From assembly GCA_040752415.1 (NCBI GenBank), contig JBFMGU010000144.1:1-27131 (forward strand): DNA of 27,131 nt. The letters run 5' to 3'. The position numbers and the translations under genes are program-made. Below are positions 11,566-19,793 of the stretch, piece after piece (position 1 is the stretch's first letter; each line of letters begins with the position of its first letter). The stretch is from Myxococcota bacterium. Lineage in GTDB: Bacteria; Myxococcota; JACRCW01. The notes beneath the pieces are model-generated. The model had not been told where the DNA came from. It did no database searches and was given only the letters and a program-made list of their open reading frames with translations.

Positions 11566-12525
11566 TCAGTCCGCCTGGAACACCTCGTCCAGCGTGCGCG
11601 CGGTCAACGCGCGAGAGAGCCAGAGGTCAAGCAGGGCGGCGTCGCGGCAGGAGCGGACCCGGGCCTGGATATCTTCCGAGGGCGCCAGCCCGCGCGCCTC
11701 CAGGACCTTGAGGACGGCGCCCGCGAGCGCGTCGGCGCGCCCTTCCTCCCGCCCTTCCTCCCGCCCTTCCTCCCGCCCCTCCGCGCGTCCTGCTTCGCGC
11801 CCTCGCTCGAGCCCTCGCTCGAGCCCTCGCTGCTCGCCCTGGCGGAGCCACTTCAGCTCGAGGTCACTGAGCTCTCCAAGCTGTCCTTGCCGCATCAACT
11901 CCTCCAGCGCGGCCCGACACGCCGCATTGACGGACCTCAGGATGAGCCCATCATAGAAAAACCGACGCTGCTCTTCCAGACCCTTTGCCGCCACGAGGGC
12001 GGCCTTCGCCGCCGACAACACGTCTTCCTGGTCACCGTGCGCCATGACGCCCAGGACCGCCAGCTCCGGCAGCTCGCGCGCCTGCTGGACGTCGGTCAGC
12101 AGGGGCAACCCCAACGGCCCCAGGGCCAGCGGTGTGAGCGCCAACTCGCCGGGCGCGCCCCCGATCGCGCGTGAGGCCCATTTCTCGACGCGCTCTTCCG
12201 CGGTCACCACCAGCAGGCGGGCGGGACAGCGCAAGCGGGCGGAGACGGCGGCAAGGTAGAGCGGCCAGCTGAACCGCTTGTCCTCGTCCACCCCGAGCTG
12301 CGCCTCCACGACGATCGCCATCGTGGGCGAGCCTGCCCGCTCCAGCACCACCACCAGGTCCGCCTGGTAGGCGCGCGGCCAGAGGTCGGCCACGTCGCCG
12401 GACTGGACCCGCGGCTCTGCGTCCGCCGGCACCACCACGTGCAGCAGGCGCGACATCAGCTCCGCCGCCAGGCTGGGCCGGTTGCGGAACAGCGCCACAA
12501 TGGCGTCGTGCTCGGGCGAGGACAT
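11566..12525 (-). CDS. Rpn-like PD-(D/E)XK nuclease-family protein with (EGRE)n repeats and C-terminal helical domain
   Basis: 'HDAIVALF' N-terminus; ADL...VEAQ catalytic pattern; GREE repeats; 'LDLWLSRALTARTLDEVF' tail; GAGGG upstream of ATG 12525. Confidence 0.8.
   Translation of the reverse strand: MSSPEHDAIVALFRNRPSLAAELMSRLLHVVVPADAEPRVQSGDVADLWPRAYQADLVVVLERAGSPTMAIVVEAQLGVDEDKRFSWPLYLAAVSARLRCPARLLVVTAEERVEKWASRAIGGAPGELALTPLALGPLGLPLLTDVQQARELPELAVLGVMAHGDQEDVLSAAKAALVAAKGLEEQRRFFYDGLILRSVNAACRAALEELMRQGQLGELSDLELKWLRQGEQRGLERGLERGREAGRAEGREEGREEGREEGRADALAGAVLKVLEARGLAPSEDIQARVRSCRDAALLDLWLSRALTARTLDEVFQAD
11739..11838. repeat. 12-bp coding tandem repeats (GREE x3, GLER x2)
   Basis: gcccttcctccc x3 at 11739-11774; gccctcgctcga x2 plus a partial copy from 11799. 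Confidence 0.9.
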
Positions 12526-12600
12526 GCGCGTGCCCTCGCACGGCACCGCGCCGTCGGCAACGCGGACCACGTCAACTTACGGGGTGGTGCCTGAGAAGGC

Positions 12601-13167
12601 TCAACAACCGGTGCGGATGGGGCGGGAGGGCGTCGTCGTGGAGGACGAGCCGCAACCGGTGCTCACCGGGCGGGACGGCGCGGGCGTCGGGGTCCAGCTC
12701 GTGGGGCGGGACGGGGTGTTCGTCGAGGAGCCGCAGCCGGTGCTCACCGGACGGGAGGGCGTGGAAACCGACGAGCCACAGCCGGTGCTCACCGGGCGCG
12801 ACGGCGTGGAGGGAGTGGAGGAGCCGCAGCCGGTGGACACGTTGCCCCCACCGCGCTCGACAGTGACACCGGTGGCCAGCTCCAGCAGCCGCGCCGCCAG
12901 CGACGAGAGCGCCCGCTGCTCCCGCGCATCCAGCTGTCCGTCCTGGTTGCGGTCCGCGCCGCGGATCTCCGCGCCCACCGTCTTGAGCGCCTCCTTCATG
13001 CGCGGGATGGACACCGTGGAGCTGCACGAGGTCTGCACCGTGCGCGCCAGCTCCCGCAGCGCCTTGTTGGAGATGTTGCCCACGTCGACACTGCTGCCCT
13101 GGTTCTTCTCCAGGCGCCGCAGCGCGTCCTGCATGGACCGCAGTCCCTTCTGGGAATCCACCTTCAT
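12601..13167 (-). CDS. 188-aa EF-hand plus TGC-repeat protein; putative substrate/precursor of the adjacent radical SAM enzyme
   Basis: GGAGGAG Shine-Dalgarno before ATG 13167; 14 nt after the rSAM stop; DRNQDGQLDARE; five [VI]-x-T-G-C units, the last at the C-terminus. Confidence 0.85.
   Translation of the reverse strand: MKVDSQKGLRSMQDALRRLEKNQGSSVDVGNISNKALRELARTVQTSCSSTVSIPRMKEALKTVGAEIRGADRNQDGQLDAREQRALSSLAARLLELATGVTVERGGGNVSTGCGSSTPSTPSRPVSTGCGSSVSTPSRPVSTGCGSSTNTPSRPTSWTPTPAPSRPVSTGCGSSSTTTPSRPIRTGC
12604..12843 (-). repeat. Five imperfect coding repeats, consensus P-S-R-P-V-S-T-G-C-G-S-S
   Basis: Cys-to-Cys spacing 16, 15, 27, 16 aa; synonymous variation between copies (ACC GGC TGC / ACC GGC TGT / ACC GGT TGC / ACC GGT TGT). 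Confidence 0.92.
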
Positions 13168-13181
13168 CTTCGGCTCCTCCC

Positions 13182-14522
13182 TCAACCAACAACGCGCAGC
13201 AGACTGGCACCGCGGCGTGGGAATGTCACGGGCGCCATCCCCTCGCGCGGCTCGTAGTGGCACCAGGAGTCCGGCCCCTCCAGCCCGTTGCCCGCGTACA
13301 GCGCCCGCACCCGGCACCCTCCCCGACACGTGTCGTGATGCCGGCAGCTCATGCACTGCGCGTTGGCGTCGATGGCGCGAAGTTGCGTGAATGCCGCGCC
13401 GCCCGCCCACAGGTCCCACAAGAGCGTCTCGCGCACGTTCCCCGACTCATACGCGCCGGGCAGGTTGAGACACGGCGTCACGTTTCCCGTCGGGGAGATG
13501 CCCATCACCACCTTGCCGGCCACGCACCCGAATCCCGGGAAGTCCGGCTCTCCCGCCTCCTCGGGGTGCGGCGCATCCAAGGTCACGCCCAGCTCCGCGG
13601 CCCGCACCCGCGCGCGGTCAATGGCGCGGCTGAAGGTGTCGCGGTCGCAGACCAGCCCGGGATTCGCCTGCGCCTCGCCGGCGGGATAGGCGGGACGCAA
13701 CAGCAGCACCCGCGCGCCCTCCTGGTGGGCCAGCTCCACCATGCGCGCAGCGTCGGGGGCGTTGCGCGGCGTGATGGTGACGGAGATGTTGAACCCCGGC
13801 GCGTAGTGCTCGCGCAGCTGCAGCATGCCGCGCAGCGCCTTCTGGAACGTGCCCGGGCCGCGGATGGCGTCGTTGGTGTCCTCGTCGGGGCCATCCAGGC
13901 TGACGCTCAGTCCCGCGGGGGGACACTCGGAGAGCGCCTGCAGCACGGCGGGCTTGAGCAGGGACGCGTTGGTGTGCACGAAGGTGTCCACGCCGACCTC
14001 GTCGGCCTTGCGTACCACGCGCGGGAGATCCTTGCGCAGGAACGGCTCCCCGCCGCCCAGCACCAGCTTCACGCAGCCCATCTCCGCCAATTGCTCGACG
14101 AGACCGGCAATCTCCTTGAAGGTCAGCTCCCCCGGCGCACGTTTTCCCGACGAGGAATAGCAATGCGCGCAGGAGAAGTTGCACGCCAGCGTCACGCCCA
14201 GGTGCGCCACCAGCGGAGCGCCGTAGCCCTGGTGCACCCGCGGCAGCTCGACGATGCGCCCCGCGAACACCCCGTCCAGTCCGAACACCCCCAGCGCCTC
14301 CAGGTCCGCGCGCGCCTGCTGCGCCTCCAGCGTCCCCACGCTGCGGGCCAGGGTGTCCACCGCGTCGTCGAGCGGCAGCTCGCGGGAGGCCACCATGAGG
14401 AAGCTCTCGGCGGCGGTGCGACGCGTGTACGCGTGGTCCGCGCGACGGTAGAGCAAGGCCCCCTCCGCCTCGACGCGCAGCGTGAACGGCACCGGCCGCG
14501 CCCTGGTCTCCGCTCTCTCCAC
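13182..14522 (-). CDS. Radical SAM/SPASM peptide maturase with putative N-terminal RRE (PqqD/MftB-like)
   Basis: CNFSCAHC; GGGEPF; SLDG; SPASM C-x17-C...C-x2-C-x5-C-x3-C-x17-C; about 90-aa N-terminal extension; GGGAGG before GTG 14522. Confidence 0.93.
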   Translation of the reverse strand: MERAETRARPVPFTLRVEAEGALLYRRADHAYTRRTAAESFLMVASRELPLDDAVDTLARSVGTLEAQQARADLEALGVFGLDGVFAGRIVELPRVHQGYGAPLVAHLGVTLACNFSCAHCYSSSGKRAPGELTFKEIAGLVEQLAEMGCVKLVLGGGEPFLRKDLPRVVRKADEVGVDTFVHTNASLLKPAVLQALSECPPAGLSVSLDGPDEDTNDAIRGPGTFQKALRGMLQLREHYAPGFNISVTITPRNAPDAARMVELAHQEGARVLLLRPAYPAGEAQANPGLVCDRDTFSRAIDRARVRAAELGVTLDAPHPEEAGEPDFPGFGCVAGKVVMGISPTGNVTPCLNLPGAYESGNVRETLLWDLWAGGAAFTQLRAIDANAQCMSCRHHDTCRGGCRVRALYAGNGLEGPDSWCHYEPREGMAPVTFPRRGASLLRVVG

Positions 14523-14610
14523 CGGACCTCCCGCGCGCCAAGCCTAGACCAACGGTGGGAACAACGGGGAGCACGGCGGAGGTGGCGCTTTGCTGCTAGA
14601 ACCGCGCCCC

Positions 14611-15771
14611 ATGACGACCACCACGGATGCCACCCTGGACCAGGCGCTCCAGCTGGTCTCCCGCCAGCAGGCGGAGATGGAGCGCACGCTCAAGCTGCTG
14701 GTCGACGAGAACTCGCACACCGCGGAGCGCGACCGCGTCAACAAGGTGGGCGCCATGCTCGCCGAGCTCTTCACCATGCCGGGGCTGACCCCGGAGTGGC
14801 GCAAGAGCGAACGCTTTGGCAACCACCTCATCCTCACCACGCCGGCCAGCGGACCGCGCACGTTGCTGATTGGTCACCATGACACGGTGTTCCCGCCCGG
14901 CACCTTCGAGGGCATGCGCGAGGATGGGGAGCTGTTGCGCGGGCCCGGCGTGCTGGACATGAAGGGCGGGCTCCTGGTGGTGCGCTTCGCGCTCAAGGCC
15001 CTCAGCGAGGTGGGCGCACTGGAGCGCATCCCGCTCGCCGTCATCAGCGTGGCAGACGAGGAAGTGGGCAGCGAGGACAGCGGGCCCCACCTGCGCGAGC
15101 TGTGCGGCAACGCCAAGGCGGCGCTGGTCTTCGAGGCGGGTCGCCTGGGCGACGCGATCATCACGCGCCGCAAGGGCACCGGTGGGATCACCGCGCGGGC
15201 GCACGGCCGGGCGGCACACGCGGGCAACGCGCACCGCGAGGGCGTGAATGCCATCTGGGCGCTGGCGCGCTTCATCGACGCGGCGCAGCGCATCACCGAC
15301 TACGACCGCGGCATCACCGTGAACGTGGGCAAGGTGAGCGGCGGCACCTCCAAGAACACCGTGCCCGACGCCGCGGAGGCGGTGATCGACTTCCGCTTCG
15401 TCCGCACCGACGACGGTCGCGACGTGGAGGCGGCCATGGCGGCGGCAGCGGACCGCGTGGCGGGCGAGGTGCCAGGCGCCCGGGTGGAGATCAGCGGCGG
15501 GGTGCGTCGGTTGCCGCTGGAGCAGACGGCGGCCTCGCGCGCGCTGATGGAACGCTACGCCGCGGCGGCGCGGGCCACGGGCCTGGGCGCGGGTGAGGCT
15601 CCGCTGCTGGGTGGTGGCAGCGACGCCAACACGGTGAGCGCCGTGGGCGTGCCGGCCATCGACGGGCTGGGGCCGCGCGGCAAGGGTTTCCACACCAATG
15701 ACGAGCAGATCGAGCGCGCCACGCTGGTTCCCAAGGCGCAGGCGCTGATCCGCTACCTGCTCACCGCATGA
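14611..15771 (+). CDS. M20 family metallopeptidase (carboxypeptidase G2/ArgE-like)
   Basis: GHHDTVF, GPGVLDMKGG, DEEVGS, VFE, AAHAG, GGSDAN, GFHT metal-ligand motifs. Confidence 0.92.
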   Translation: MTTTTDATLDQALQLVSRQQAEMERTLKLLVDENSHTAERDRVNKVGAMLAELFTMPGLTPEWRKSERFGNHLILTTPASGPRTLLIGHHDTVFPPGTFEGMREDGELLRGPGVLDMKGGLLVVRFALKALSEVGALERIPLAVISVADEEVGSEDSGPHLRELCGNAKAALVFEAGRLGDAIITRRKGTGGITARAHGRAAHAGNAHREGVNAIWALARFIDAAQRITDYDRGITVNVGKVSGGTSKNTVPDAAEAVIDFRFVRTDDGRDVEAAMAAAADRVAGEVPGARVEISGGVRRLPLEQTAASRALMERYAAAARATGLGAGEAPLLGGGSDANTVSAVGVPAIDGLGPRGKGFHTNDEQIERATLVPKAQALIRYLLTA

Positions 15772-16428: not shown

Positions 16429-17202
16429 TCAGGGTGACCAGCCGCAGATGTTCCGTGCGCGGTCTAGGGTACGGGTATTGGAATTGTCGGTCCCATGGTC
16501 GTGGCTCATGGCCAGGTCCTCGTGAGGACGACTCGGTTGCCGCGCCTTTGACTCCTGTAGGAACTGCTGGAACGCAGCGTGCTGCAGTCGGCAGTAAGGT
16601 GCCTGCACCGCATTCTGCTGCAAAGTCCGACCACGACTATCAAGCCCATTCTCGTCGTAGATCTGAGCCCCAGTGCAATACAGGGGAACAACGAATTGGC
16701 CGTCGTCCGTAAGAAGGGCAACTTCCGCGTCTGGTGACCAAGGGATCACCTCCGTCGCCGCATAGCCGCAAACCACGGCCTGCGCGCTGCTCACGGCCTC
16801 TCGTTTTATGCATGCATACCCATACACAGGAGAGCCGTGTGCCCAGTTCCGAAATGAAATCGGAACCTCATAGTTGATGAGGAAGTCGGTCTCGCCCATT
16901 GATTCCCCGATGATGTACTCCTCAGGCGTGAACTGGACGCGGTAGCCATTATTTGGGCAACGGCACTGGTCCACGCTCATTCCTGATTCGCAGGGATTTG
17001 TGCCGGGGCACGCCTCAAACGCGTTCATTCTGACCTTGATCACAGCGTGGCACGAGTCCCATTGCTCCTGGCTCGGGGTCCATTCGCCATCATTGACGAC
17101 GTTTTGCCCGGATCCCGATGGCTCGATGGGTCCGCTCGTTGAACACGCGGCGCACGCGGCGAGAAATGCCGCCACGCAACCAAGTCTGAGGATTCTCACC
17201 AT
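16429..17202 (-). CDS. Hypothetical Cys-rich lipoprotein
   Basis: MVRILRLGCVAAFLAACAAC lipobox-like signal; multiple Cys in the mature part; open 257-codon frame in lower-GC DNA. Confidence 0.7.
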   Translation of the reverse strand: MVRILRLGCVAAFLAACAACSTSGPIEPSGSGQNVVNDGEWTPSQEQWDSCHAVIKVRMNAFEACPGTNPCESGMSVDQCRCPNNGYRVQFTPEEYIIGESMGETDFLINYEVPISFRNWAHGSPVYGYACIKREAVSSAQAVVCGYAATEVIPWSPDAEVALLTDDGQFVVPLYCTGAQIYDENGLDSRGRTLQQNAVQAPYCRLQHAAFQQFLQESKARQPSRPHEDLAMSHDHGTDNSNTRTLDRARNICGWSP

Positions 17203-17331
17203 GCGGCACCCGTTCCAGCGAGCCCCGGACAAAGTAGCGTTCCATCTGCCTATGTTCTCATTGATGACCTGCAGCCTCCGGGACATCCTCATCCCCCATC
17301 CCCCACCATCGCCCACGCCAAGAAGGCCCCG

Positions 17332-17661
17332 TTAGAACGTTGGTCGGTCTCTGGTGTTGCAGGTGCCATTGTCACAAAAGGCCTCTACTGGCTCCGCGGC
17401 GCAATCACAGGTGGTTGGCGTTGGTGGAAACGGGCACGCCATCGCCTTCTCATCGCTGGCGAATCGGGCAGCATCCTTGCGGTTCACAGAGCCTGCCACG
17501 GCGCCGCAATGGCAGAACGGGTTTTCGCATGCCTCATAAACCACAATGACGCAATCGTCGTCAACCGTGCAGCTCCGATCATAGTCTTGGACGTTAGCGT
17601 GACAGGCGCTAAGGAAAGACAACAACAGAGCAGCGGACAACCCCATGATTTGTCGGCCCAT
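17332..17661 (-). CDS. Small Cys-rich lipoprotein
   Basis: GAGGA Shine-Dalgarno before ATG 17661; LSAC lipobox; 'SCTVDDDCV...C...CHC...CP...CDC...AFCDNGTC' disulfide-rich pattern. Confidence 0.75.
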   Translation of the reverse strand: MGRQIMGLSAALLLSFLSACHANVQDYDRSCTVDDDCVIVVYEACENPFCHCGAVAGSVNRKDAARFASDEKAMACPFPPTPTTCDCAAEPVEAFCDNGTCNTRDRPTF

Positions 17662-17729
17662 CACCGCGTTCCTCACGGAGCCAAGCCGCACACAGTCTCG
17701 CGGCGATCCGAAGGTCGTGTTTCCGCGCC

Positions 17730-19793
17730 TCATAGACACTCCCCGGAGAACGAAGGGTCACAGACCAGTGTTGGAAAGATGAATTCATTGCAGTGTTCCC
17801 ACTCGCAGTAGTCGCCGGCGACTCCGCCCCAGCGGAACTTCGAGGCGCTCGACGGAATATCGAAGAGGCGAACTCCGAGATCAAAGGGGTTGAAGTCTCC
17901 GTTGCCATCAAGGAGAACCGCCGTATTGAAGTTGGCGCCCGGGAAGCGCCTGCTCACAGACAATGACCATGCAGGCCCGGGATGGGTTCCAGCAACAACA
18001 CTGGCGTAGTCCGTGACGCCGATAACCATGGCGTCTTGGAGGGAGTTGGTTCGGTTGCAAGCACCCGGAGTAATGGTCTGTGCTGCGGCATTCACGGTAA
18101 ATGGGCAAACAACCATCTTCAGATCCTTGTCCTCCACAGCGTTCTGGAACTCGTGGAAGATTAGGCGACAATCATTGCCGGACTTGATGTGATTGTGACA
18201 TGCAATATCGAATGGGCCTATCGGAGCAACATCAAGGATGTTGGTAAAAGTGAAATTCGTTCCGACTCCGGTGTCACTATTCAGGTATGGACCAGCACGA
18301 CGCGGGGGACCGAATGCAAACCCTGCCGCTGCGGGGTCATTTCCATTGGAAACCAGGAACTGGATTTGATGACGGGCGTCCGCAAACGCGATCACGTACC
18401 GATGTGAGGCATTATCAAATGCAACTCGCGGCTCCGACTTGGAGAGGGTGCCACCGGCAGGCGTGATCGTGTTGACCCCTACCCATTGCATCGTGTCCAT
18501 GTTCAATCGTGCGAATTGCGGGAACATCCCTGGATTGCTCCACACCACGACCGCTGAGCCATAGGTTGTCGCTCCTTCCCGCGAGAACGCGATGTCGGGG
18601 TTGGTAAGGGCAGTGCCATTGCCCGACGGCAACAGCGCTGTCGTTGTCAGGTGGAGCTGAGGGCCTTGCGAGGAGCTATTGTCGTCCATGGTCCATACCC
18701 TGATGGTTCCATCAGTTGATCCAGTCCTCTCGGTTGTGACCATGACACAGTCAGGAATGTCTTGGTCGCCTGCGCAGGCTAGTCGCGGAGGCGTCAAAGA
18801 CCTCGGCGCCGGAAGGCCGAGTTCCCGGGTGAAAGCGACAGTGCTGCCCGTTGTGATGTTCCCGCTGCCATCAATCACACCGGGAATGTACTTCACATCG
18901 ACGAGGTTGCCGCCACCGAACGCAGCGCTTCCGCTTCGCATGGATACGATATCCTCACGCGTCAGCTCCAGCGACGCTGCGCCTGCGGTCTGACAGACTA
19001 TCGGCCCTTCCTGCCCCGTGCTCGGCGACGCGACACATGGCGGTGTGGTGGAGCTTGGATCATTGGATCCAAAGCAGTGGACGAATTCATGCATCGCTGT
19101 TCGGTGAAACAGGGAGCCCATCGGAGGGGGACCCCCGATTTCCTCCCAATCGAGACCTGTCGGAGGTGGACCGGGCTGGTTGCCTCTTCCCGAGAACGAC
19201 CGCGGGATGGGGCGGCCGGCACACATGTCACCGCAGCCCGGGGGACATGGTGGAAAAGGAAATGCCCCACATCCGGGAGGACATAGTGGATTATTGTTCA
19301 CGCACAGGTTGCCCTGAAACGAGATGTCGCATTCGCTTCCACTAAACGCAGCCGCATGTGCATTGATGCAATTGGTTGCGCATCCTGGCGGGCACTGTGG
19401 AAAGCCGCTTGGCAGGCACCCAGGTGGGCATCCGTTCCAATTGCAGCACGTCGGTCCCGGACAGACCATGTCATGATACGTGAGGACACTATTGCCGTCG
19501 GGAACCAGGTCTTTCGGAACCCAAGAGTCCGGCGTCGAGTCCACTTCCACGGCGATGTCTGTTCTCGCGGAGCGATTCCAGAATTGCGTCACACGATCAA
19601 GGAAGCTCGCGGCTTGCGCCGTCGTTAGCTCTTCGCCGGGAAACCAGGATACCCCTGCACCGAATGTGTCCTTTACGTGGTATGTCTCGCGTCCTGCAGC
19701 CAACGTCGTCACGCCGAAGGGATAAAGTGCGGCTGCGGTTGAAGCTGCAAGAACCACCGAGCCCGCGATGACCCCGATTAATAGCCGCTTCAC
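17730..19793 (-). CDS. Secreted metzincin-like zinc metalloprotease with CPPGC repeats and probable beta-rich C-terminal domain
   Basis: Signal peptide MKRLLIGVIAGSVVLAASTAAA; HEFVHCFGSND at 19059-19091; matrixin-like 'LTREDIVSMR'; GGAGG before the GTG start. Confidence 0.75.
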   Translation of the reverse strand: MKRLLIGVIAGSVVLAASTAAALYPFGVTTLAAGRETYHVKDTFGAGVSWFPGEELTTAQAASFLDRVTQFWNRSARTDIAVEVDSTPDSWVPKDLVPDGNSVLTYHDMVCPGPTCCNWNGCPPGCLPSGFPQCPPGCATNCINAHAAAFSGSECDISFQGNLCVNNNPLCPPGCGAFPFPPCPPGCGDMCAGRPIPRSFSGRGNQPGPPPTGLDWEEIGGPPPMGSLFHRTAMHEFVHCFGSNDPSSTTPPCVASPSTGQEGPIVCQTAGAASLELTREDIVSMRSGSAAFGGGNLVDVKYIPGVIDGSGNITTGSTVAFTRELGLPAPRSLTPPRLACAGDQDIPDCVMVTTERTGSTDGTIRVWTMDDNSSSQGPQLHLTTTALLPSGNGTALTNPDIAFSREGATTYGSAVVVWSNPGMFPQFARLNMDTMQWVGVNTITPAGGTLSKSEPRVAFDNASHRYVIAFADARHQIQFLVSNGNDPAAAGFAFGPPRRAGPYLNSDTGVGTNFTFTNILDVAPIGPFDIACHNHIKSGNDCRLIFHEFQNAVEDKDLKMVVCPFTVNAAAQTITPGACNRTNSLQDAMVIGVTDYASVVAGTHPGPAWSLSVSRRFPGANFNTAVLLDGNGDFNPFDLGVRLFDIPSSASKFRWGGVAGDYCEWEHCNEFIFPTLVCDPSFSGECL

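Follow-up and report, generated by a model that had tools for sequence, protein, structure and literature searches.

This article concerns a two-gene cassette found in a stretch of 27,131 nucleotides (contig JBFMGU010000144.1 of assembly GCA_040752415.1, hereafter the window) from a bacterium of the phylum Myxococcota. The cassette comprises a radical S-adenosylmethionine (rSAM)/SPASM enzyme, P0002, and a 188-residue protein, P0001, in which an EF-hand-like domain is followed by a tail of repeated V/I-x-T-G-C motifs. With moderate confidence, we propose that the enzyme acts on a cytoplasmic protein that stays intact, modifying its Cys motifs, and that the EF-hand pair is an accessory rather than a cleavable leader. 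An earlier note on this DNA had taken P0001 for a putative precursor of the type known from peptides made by the ribosome and altered after translation (RiPPs), and had left two alternatives, a Ca2+-binding leader cut at GG or an intact modified protein. It is the latter that we favour, while the former fits the comparative data poorly.

In the proposed scheme, P0002, with its fused recognition-like domain, would act on the protein encoded 14 nt downstream, its targets being the [VIL]-x-[TS]-G-C copies, five in the disordered tail and one inside the N-terminal domain. A thioether would be formed at the motif Cys, possibly linking motif copies to one another. The candidate element bound by the recognition domain would be a shared helix (LSPLAARLL) together with the motifs, around which EF-hand elements would have been gained or lost, and the product would most likely be the whole modified protein.

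The EF-hand assignment starts from a single loop. Translation of the minus strand between positions 12919 and 12954, where the earlier note had placed an EF-hand loop, gives exactly DRNQDGQLDARE. Positions 1, 3, 5, and 12 of this loop hold oxygen ligands, position 6 is Gly and position 8 is hydrophobic. Homologues were gathered by an exhaustive phmmer search with residues 1–108, which returned 17 proteins, the rest being added by genome and profile searches; an initial search with the domain alone had found the query itself and nothing else. Once a spurious repeat protein (P0013) had been dropped from all counts, the family stood at 22 members, all of metagenome-derived sequence. Counted with the pattern D.[DN].[DN][GN].[ILVF]...E, slightly wider than the one used for the genome count below, the 12-residue loop is kept in 20 of them, the exceptions being P0011, with a 13-residue loop, and P0016, with Gly at position 1. 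The earlier note had let its claim hang on the conservation of the ligands, and their positions are indeed kept in these 20 members, which span 28–54% identity. In a 17-row alignment, D72, G77, and E83 never vary, and D76 hardly does.

The loop is also far from a chance product of composition. Over 13.6 million residues (genome ORFs, open reading frames, of at least 100 aa), the pattern D.[DN].[DN]G.[ILV]...E was seen 107 times against 0.88 expected by composition, and its chance in one 188-aa protein is about 1e-5. On these sequence counts the EF-loop pattern is a motif in real use in this organism, most of the 107 matches falling in giant repeat proteins. Giant ORFs of 1482–4687 aa lie on contigs C1, C11, C38, and C45 of G000, the genome of the window. 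Each has 10–15 tandem DxDxDGxxDxxE-type loops, and they probably encode large repeat proteins that are secreted and bind Ca2+. When the family profile was run against PDB sequences, only EF-hand proteins were found among the 60 matches listed, the best being a CDPK (E 2.4e-5) and lanmodulin (7.7e-5 and 1.4e-4), with calmodulins present too. Weak Pfam matches to EF-hand_5 and EF-hand_1 occur in 9 of 17 members (best E 0.0075–0.01), and two distant relatives from the same phylum, L014 and L016, exceed the EF-hand_5 cut-off (29.5 vs. 25.9 bits). At the level of sequence, the EF-hand assignment is well supported.

Structure prediction agrees with this picture. The AlphaFold2 (AF2) model of P0001 has a predicted local distance difference test score (pLDDT) above 90 over residues 1–100, and the region is conserved in homologues, as expected from the folded domain of about 105 residues announced by the earlier note. 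Its elements are helix 5–23, strand 26–28, helix 35–44, strand 51–53, helix 54–71, the loop 72–83, which includes a short strand at 78–79, and helices 81–85 and 89–99. The loop, said beforehand to lie between helices, is placed by AF2 between helix 54–71 and the helix starting at 81; the incoming helix is predicted to end at loop position 1 and the outgoing one to start at position 10, as in canonical EF-hands. This last helix (81–99) is kinked at 86–88. Among the structure rows returned by the ESM Atlas, 9 of 10 are bacterial EF-hand clusters, with template modelling (TM) scores of 0.42–0.47 over 69–90 aligned residues and feature scores of 0.84–0.87, values that are leads only by the calibration of the tool. 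Foldseek (pdb) and VIA wide searches with the precursor model gave weak matches and no clear fold.

From these comparisons and the model, we conclude that the N-terminal domain resembles a divergent EF-hand pair, of which one hand is complete and the first is degenerate. Since the loop of the second hand is complete, conserved and of Ca2+ type, this hand probably binds Ca2+. We prefer a layout in which helices 5–23 and 35–44 make up the degenerate first hand and a Cys motif sits in the inter-hand connection, because all four helices are then accounted for. Another layout, with the in-domain Cys motif on the degenerate first-hand loop, is less preferred; it comes from HMMER, where the match to CDPK is weak (domain E 0.21).

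The second hallmark of P0001 is its Cys motif. AF2 models residues 106–188 as disordered, and Tandem Repeats Finder detects a 45-nt repeat in the tail region. Five V/I-x-T-G-C motifs end at Cys 114, 130, 145, 172, and 188, the last of these being the final residue of the protein. The first is led into by E-R-G-G-G-N-V-S-T-G-C at residues 104–114, so that the RGGG claimed to precede the first repeat is present as ERGGG. Of 54 tail sites, 48 have V at −4, 51 have T or S at −2, and 46 have G at −1, and the protein ends exactly on the Cys of its last motif in 21 of the 22 members. Every Cys of P0001 (6/6), and all but two across the whole family, belongs to a motif.

A further copy lies inside the folded domain, in the connection between helices 2 and 3: [VIL]x[TS][GS]C is found in 20/22 members, 24–28 residues ahead of the loop, with residue preferences equal to those of the tail copies. 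Two motifs are the least that a full-length member has, and in minimal members one of the two lies in the domain and the other at the C-terminus. The canonical EF loop directly precedes the LSPLAARLL helix and adjoins this in-domain motif. As to what the homologues of the domain carry, a question the earlier note had proposed to settle by searching with the domain alone, all close ones share the same Ser/Thr/Pro/Gly-rich tail with one to five [VI]-x-[TS]-G-C, and distant ones carry other cargo. In L014 (1093–1950, minus strand) and L016 (1204–2115, plus strand), two canonical EF-hands are fused to a VanY/M15 D-Ala-D-Ala carboxypeptidase domain, which suggests a Ca2+-linked cell-wall peptidase; L015, a distant relative of the EF part, has a CHAP-like region as cargo. 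With its C-terminal Cys and the copy carried within a folded domain, the V-x-T-G-C motif defines an uncharacterised substrate type, for which Pfam and NCBIfam hold no model.

P0001 begins with MKVDSQKGLRSMQDALRRLEKNQ and, judged by eye, its N-terminus has no hydrophobic stretch of the signal-peptide kind, as had been said of it before. Its product therefore probably stays in the cytoplasm.

The partner enzyme is a radical SAM/SPASM protein, its Radical_SAM and SPASM matches both exceeding the Pfam thresholds. None of the best 25 NCBIfam families reaches its cut-off: the top one is MftC (TIGR03962), matched over nearly the whole profile at 184 bits vs. a cut-off of 265, and the StsB model is matched at 117 bits vs. 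625. With the AF2 model of P0002, Foldseek returns SkfB first (E 4e-14, TM 0.61/0.69), then CteB, SuiB, PqqE, anSME, and TigE; SkfB and CteB are both thioether-forming enzymes. At the N-terminus, the DSSP assignment of the model (strands 13–18, 21–26, and 31–35, helices 37–45, 51–62, and 64–77; pLDDT 79–98) puts three strands ahead of three helices, as in a RiPP recognition element, and it is by this topology that the recognition-like domain is proposed; Pfam PqqD gives no match in P0002 at E ≤ 10. In an alignment of six orthologues, C333, C351, C390, C393, C399, C403, and C421 of the SPASM region are invariant, and the N-terminal recognition-like region is also kept in the L018 rSAM, the sole enzyme of these six rows to come from a system whose precursor has no EF-hand (EF-less). 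By analogy, the chemistry is most likely a Cys thioether of the sactionine or ranthionine type, perhaps between motif copies. It is our first choice because of the StsB precedent, the near-invariant Gly beside each Cys and the presence of at least two motifs in each full-length member.

The role of the domain can be judged from related systems. In 401 genomes of the phylum, rSAM orthologues (47–65% identity, E ≤ 1e-60) were found in 14, and the precursor gene adjoins the enzyme gene in 12 of these. Five (G000–G003 and G361) have an EF-hand precursor next to the rSAM, homologues of P0001 adjoining the enzyme gene in G001, G002, G003, and G361 according to the genome searches. The seven others encode an EF-less precursor of 75–121 aa that starts with MTVGKAGG..., has only 9–13 residues ahead of the first motif, contains the same motif three to five times and, in complete records, ends in RTGC. 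The enzymes that serve these EF-less precursors are 59–65% identical to P0002, and the window enzyme is most like one of them, at 65% identity. Maximum-likelihood analysis groups the 12 enzymes with precursors in a single clade (100/100 support) whose internal branching is not resolved; the EF label requires at least two changes on this tree, and a test of EF monophyly does not reject it (p-AU 0.089). Searched with the family profile, the genome bearing L018, whose completeness is not established, gave no EF-type protein elsewhere. No [VI]x[TS]GC precursor was seen within 1.5 kb of the most distant rSAMs (47–48% identity), L047 in G072 and L049 in G039, two genomes kept in the count of 14; the substrate of these enzymes may be another one, or its gene may lie elsewhere.

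The two types of precursor are themselves related. When their profiles were aligned with hhalign (95.2%, E 2.6e-8, much of the score being due to the tails), the last helix and tail of the EF-type fell onto the central helix and tails of the EF-less type, whose LSxR[ST]xxxLxKA is the counterpart of LSPLAARLL. Motif copies flank this shared helix on both sides in both types, so the in-domain copy of P0001 corresponds in position to the copies upstream of the helix in EF-less precursors. The EF-less precursors L038, L039, L040, L043, L044, and L045 are also strongly basic and Lys-rich, and in all of them G-W follows the second motif; the tails of the EF-type are instead Ser/Thr/Pro-rich. Both types of precursor are rare: clustered at 90% identity, they make 14 and 22 clusters, all annotated “hypothetical protein” and all from Myxococcota metagenome-assembled genomes or metagenomes. 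The cassette family is small, so far restricted to Myxococcota, and has no Pfam or NCBIfam model.

Could the EF-hand domain nevertheless be a classical leader, bound to Ca2+, needed by the rSAM and cut at GG so that modified VSTGC peptides are released? The layout of P0001, an N-terminal domain followed by C-terminal repeats, does resemble a leader with a multi-core precursor, and R-G-G-G stands ahead of the first repeat. The rSAM bears a recognition-like domain, and in the archaeal protein CrpA, discussed below, the N-terminal domain is reported to contribute to processing (PMC13692751). We nonetheless judge this account improbable, and this side of the earlier note's inference is mostly unsupported. 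Just 8/22 members have a GG in the linker that leads from the domain to the first tail Cys; P0001 matches no NHLP- or Nif11-like leader family of NCBIfam or Pfam at E ≤ 1; and a leader required for recognition is hard to square with the domain-free precursors of half the genomes with orthologous rSAMs (7/14), whose enzymes belong to the same fully supported clade. Because orthologous rSAMs serve EF-less precursors, the EF domain is not an obligatory recognition element. The motif copy inside the domain, present in 20/22, and the lack of a signal peptide in a product that is probably cytoplasmic also speak against release of the tail. In the six neighbourhoods compared (window, G001, G002, G003, G361, and L018), the flanking genes all differ, and they include no C39 peptidase, no ABC transporter and no other protease, peptidase or transporter that is conserved. 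The M20 peptidase encoded beside the cassette in the window was considered as a maturation protease and set aside, since none of the other five neighbourhoods has its gene; it probably has no part in the cassette.

The domain might instead be an uncleaved and non-essential docking module, a second contact that raises efficiency or sets the order of modification, as proposed for CrpA, with Ca2+ in a purely structural role. This is unlikely in our view, although of the rivals it deserves the most attention: removal of the CrpA N-domain is reported to lower processing without abolishing it (PMC13692751), and LSPLAARLL, where the domain is most conserved, is common to the EF-less precursors and comes directly after the Ca2+ loop. 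Yet the EF-type and EF-less rSAMs are not separated on the tree, and no enzyme feature tracking the domain was seen. Rather less probable is a loop that is not a working Ca2+ site but a structural turn or an EF-hand relic in a helical scaffold. P0001 has no Pfam match; its loop position 13 is Gln, not a hydrophobic residue, and so does not satisfy the PROSITE EF-hand pattern at its final position; position 9 is Gly in six members; the outgoing F helix is short and kinked at S88-S/P89 in the AF2 model; and the fold matches are weak. Such conservation of ligand positions 1, 3, 5, and 12, of Gly6 and of hydrophobic position 8, kept in 20/22 members at the identities given above, is however hard to account for without selection for metal binding, and the PDB matches listed are exclusively EF-hand proteins. 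Most speculative of all, and hardly more than a long shot, is a Ca2+-gated modification, in which Ca2+ would reorient the shared helix and the Cys-bearing connection and thereby switch on or off either their access to the enzyme or a thioether staple; such a staple would join the in-domain and C-terminal motifs, the two that minimal members have.

Returning to the intact, modified protein that we favour, several considerations weigh against it. The loop pattern also occurs, in this genome, in the non-EF-hand Ca2+ repeats of giant proteins, so the loop alone is no proof of an EF-hand. All Pfam EF-hand matches of the members fall below the gathering scores, and P0001 itself matches none at E ≤ 1, no family of Pfam or NCBIfam, EF-hand models included, being found at that threshold. 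The AF2 models are derived from shallow alignments, 17 sequences for P0001 and 6 for P0002. A housekeeping protease acting in trans is possible. The EF-less systems, compared by sequence, indicate that the domain is not universally required, with which a docking role where it is present would still be compatible. As for chemistry, a cyclopropyl synthase of the TvgB or TigE kind would suit the conserved Val at −4 just as well, and the resemblance to MftC together with a C-terminal Cys would fit a C-terminal decarboxylation. A search for sequencing runs listed none and found no RNA data set. The proposal as a whole is drawn from sequences and models, with metal binding and modification both predicted.

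Among known systems, CrpA/CrpC of Methanococcus voltae is by analogy the closest functional match to P0001/P0002. CrpC is an rSAM-SPASM enzyme with a predicted recognition domain that is reported to install ranthionines on a protein (PMC13692751). CrpA is, like P0001, protein-sized, with an N-terminal domain and C-terminal Cys repeats encoded in a small cassette; its N-domain helps processing without being essential, and the product is viewed as a modified protein. It differs in its C-x-x-Q/D motif, in its 17-residue repeats predicted to form a beta-helix, in having no EF-hand, and in being archaeal (PMC13692751). The family of CrpC, TIGR04463, does not figure in the best 25 NCBIfam hits of P0002.

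The literature search for EF-hands with RiPPs and radical SAM enzymes or leader peptides yielded a single relevant case, the MNIO/bufferin EF-hand fusions. These too combine, in one protein, a short unstructured RiPP-type segment with Cys motifs and Ca2+-binding EF-hands, for which a role in Ca2+ homeostasis or signalling has been proposed besides that of the modified Cys. Their enzyme is however an MNIO (DUF692), their two canonical EF-hands are C-terminal, and a transmembrane helix precedes the Cys segment, whereas P0001 is paired with an rSAM, is cytoplasmic, and has an N-terminal EF domain that itself holds a motif copy.

On the enzyme side, StsB and mycofactocin MftC are also among the closest known systems. 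StsB is described as an MftC-like rSAM that makes sactionine links from Cys to the alpha-carbon of Gly (PMC10288494); StsB/StsA and BlaB/BlaA resemble P0002 in having their best full-length similarity to MftC, and the sactionine chemistry is theirs (PMC10288494). The P0001 motif pairs a conserved Gly with the Cys, which may be compared with the Cys-to-Gly links of StsA. The latter is nevertheless a short peptide with a leader and a CxCxCx4GxGxG core, with neither V-x-T-G-C repeats, nor a C-terminal Cys rule, nor a folded domain (PMC10288494). With mycofactocin, the likeness lies in MftC being the best-scoring curated family for P0002 and in the conserved extreme C-terminal residue of the substrate, although MftA ends in Gly-Val-Tyr (PMC10288494) and P0001 in T-G-C. 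No mftB/D/E/F-like gene was seen among the neighbours examined in the six neighbourhoods. Recognition in mycofactocin is the task of a separate MftB, while P0002 has a fused recognition-like domain. Lastly, NHLP and Nif11 leaders are similar in placing a large region derived from a protein domain before the modified one; they are unlike P0001, which has no conserved GG and no peptidase-transporter nearby, and whose domain is optional and carries the modification motif.

The features of the cassette and the genes around it are collected in Table 1. The stop codon of the rSAM gene lies 14 nt 5′ of the P0001 start. Directly downstream of P0001, an ORF of 334 aa (11566–12570, minus strand) without a Pfam match carries a GREEGREEGREEGR repeat near its C-terminus and is not kept beside the cassette in other genomes. 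Between 16400 and 21200, the G+C content is lower (0.57–0.64 vs. 0.68–0.75 elsewhere) and there are ORFs that have no Pfam matches; among those of this stretch, which may be an acquired island, are a Cys- and Pro-rich protein of 687 aa (17730–19793, minus strand) and two small Cys-rich proteins with lipoprotein-like N-termini (16429–17316 and 17332–17739, minus strand).

Table 1. Features of the P0001/P0002 cassette and genes found beside it; positions are those of the window.
Feature	Position	Strand	Basis or remark
P0001 gene, 188-aa substrate protein	12601..13167	−	Translation; TGA stop included
Shine-Dalgarno-like GGGAGGAG	13174..13181	−	6 nt 5′ of the P0001 ATG; read from sequence
N-terminal folded domain, residues 1–100: four helices, probable EF-hand pair with one canonical hand	12868..13167	−	AF2, profile matches
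EF-hand loop, residues 72–83	12919..12954	−	Translation, alignment, pattern match
In-domain motif copy V44-Q-T-S-C48, helix 2–helix 3 connection	13024..13038	−	Family alignment
Most conserved helix, L87-S-S-L-A-A-R-L-L95	12883..12909	−	Family consensus LSPLAARLL; S88, L90, L95 invariant
Disordered Ser/Thr/Pro/Gly-rich tail, residues 101–188	12604..12867	−	pLDDT <60
Radical SAM/SPASM enzyme P0002, 446 aa	13182..14522	−	Pfam Radical_SAM 87.9 bits, SPASM 33.5 bits
RiPP recognition element (RRE)/PqqD-like domain of P0002, residues 13–77	14292..14486	−	AF2 topology only
CxxxCxxC radical-SAM cluster motif, C114, C118, C121	14160..14183	−	Invariant in six orthologues
SPASM region, seven invariant Cys (C333 to C421)	13260..13526	−	Pfam SPASM residues 333–393
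M20/M25/M40 family peptidase gene	14590–15771	+	Divergent from the rSAM gene, then HAD hydrolase
Neighbours in the window			M20 peptidase, HAD hydrolase, SNF2 helicase
Neighbours in G001			RecA, metallophosphoesterase, WD40 protein
Neighbours in G002			BKACE, carboxyltransferase, Ser/Thr kinase, FHA protein
Neighbours in G003			VWA protein, zinc-ribbon protein
Neighbours in G361			IS91 transposase, PBP1
Neighbour of L018			LRR protein

RiPP-type rSAM enzymes are increasingly found to act on whole proteins, beyond short peptides. Here, a same clade of enzymes is associated with precursors that do and do not have an EF-hand domain, and this offers a natural comparison of what the domain adds. 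Should Ca2+ gating prove true, P0001 would act as a sensor of Ca2+ in the cytoplasm, and a Cys crosslink installed by the rSAM on a folded protein would record its state or serve to read it. If the domain does bind Ca2+, this would be the first link found between a Ca2+-binding domain and a radical-SAM substrate.

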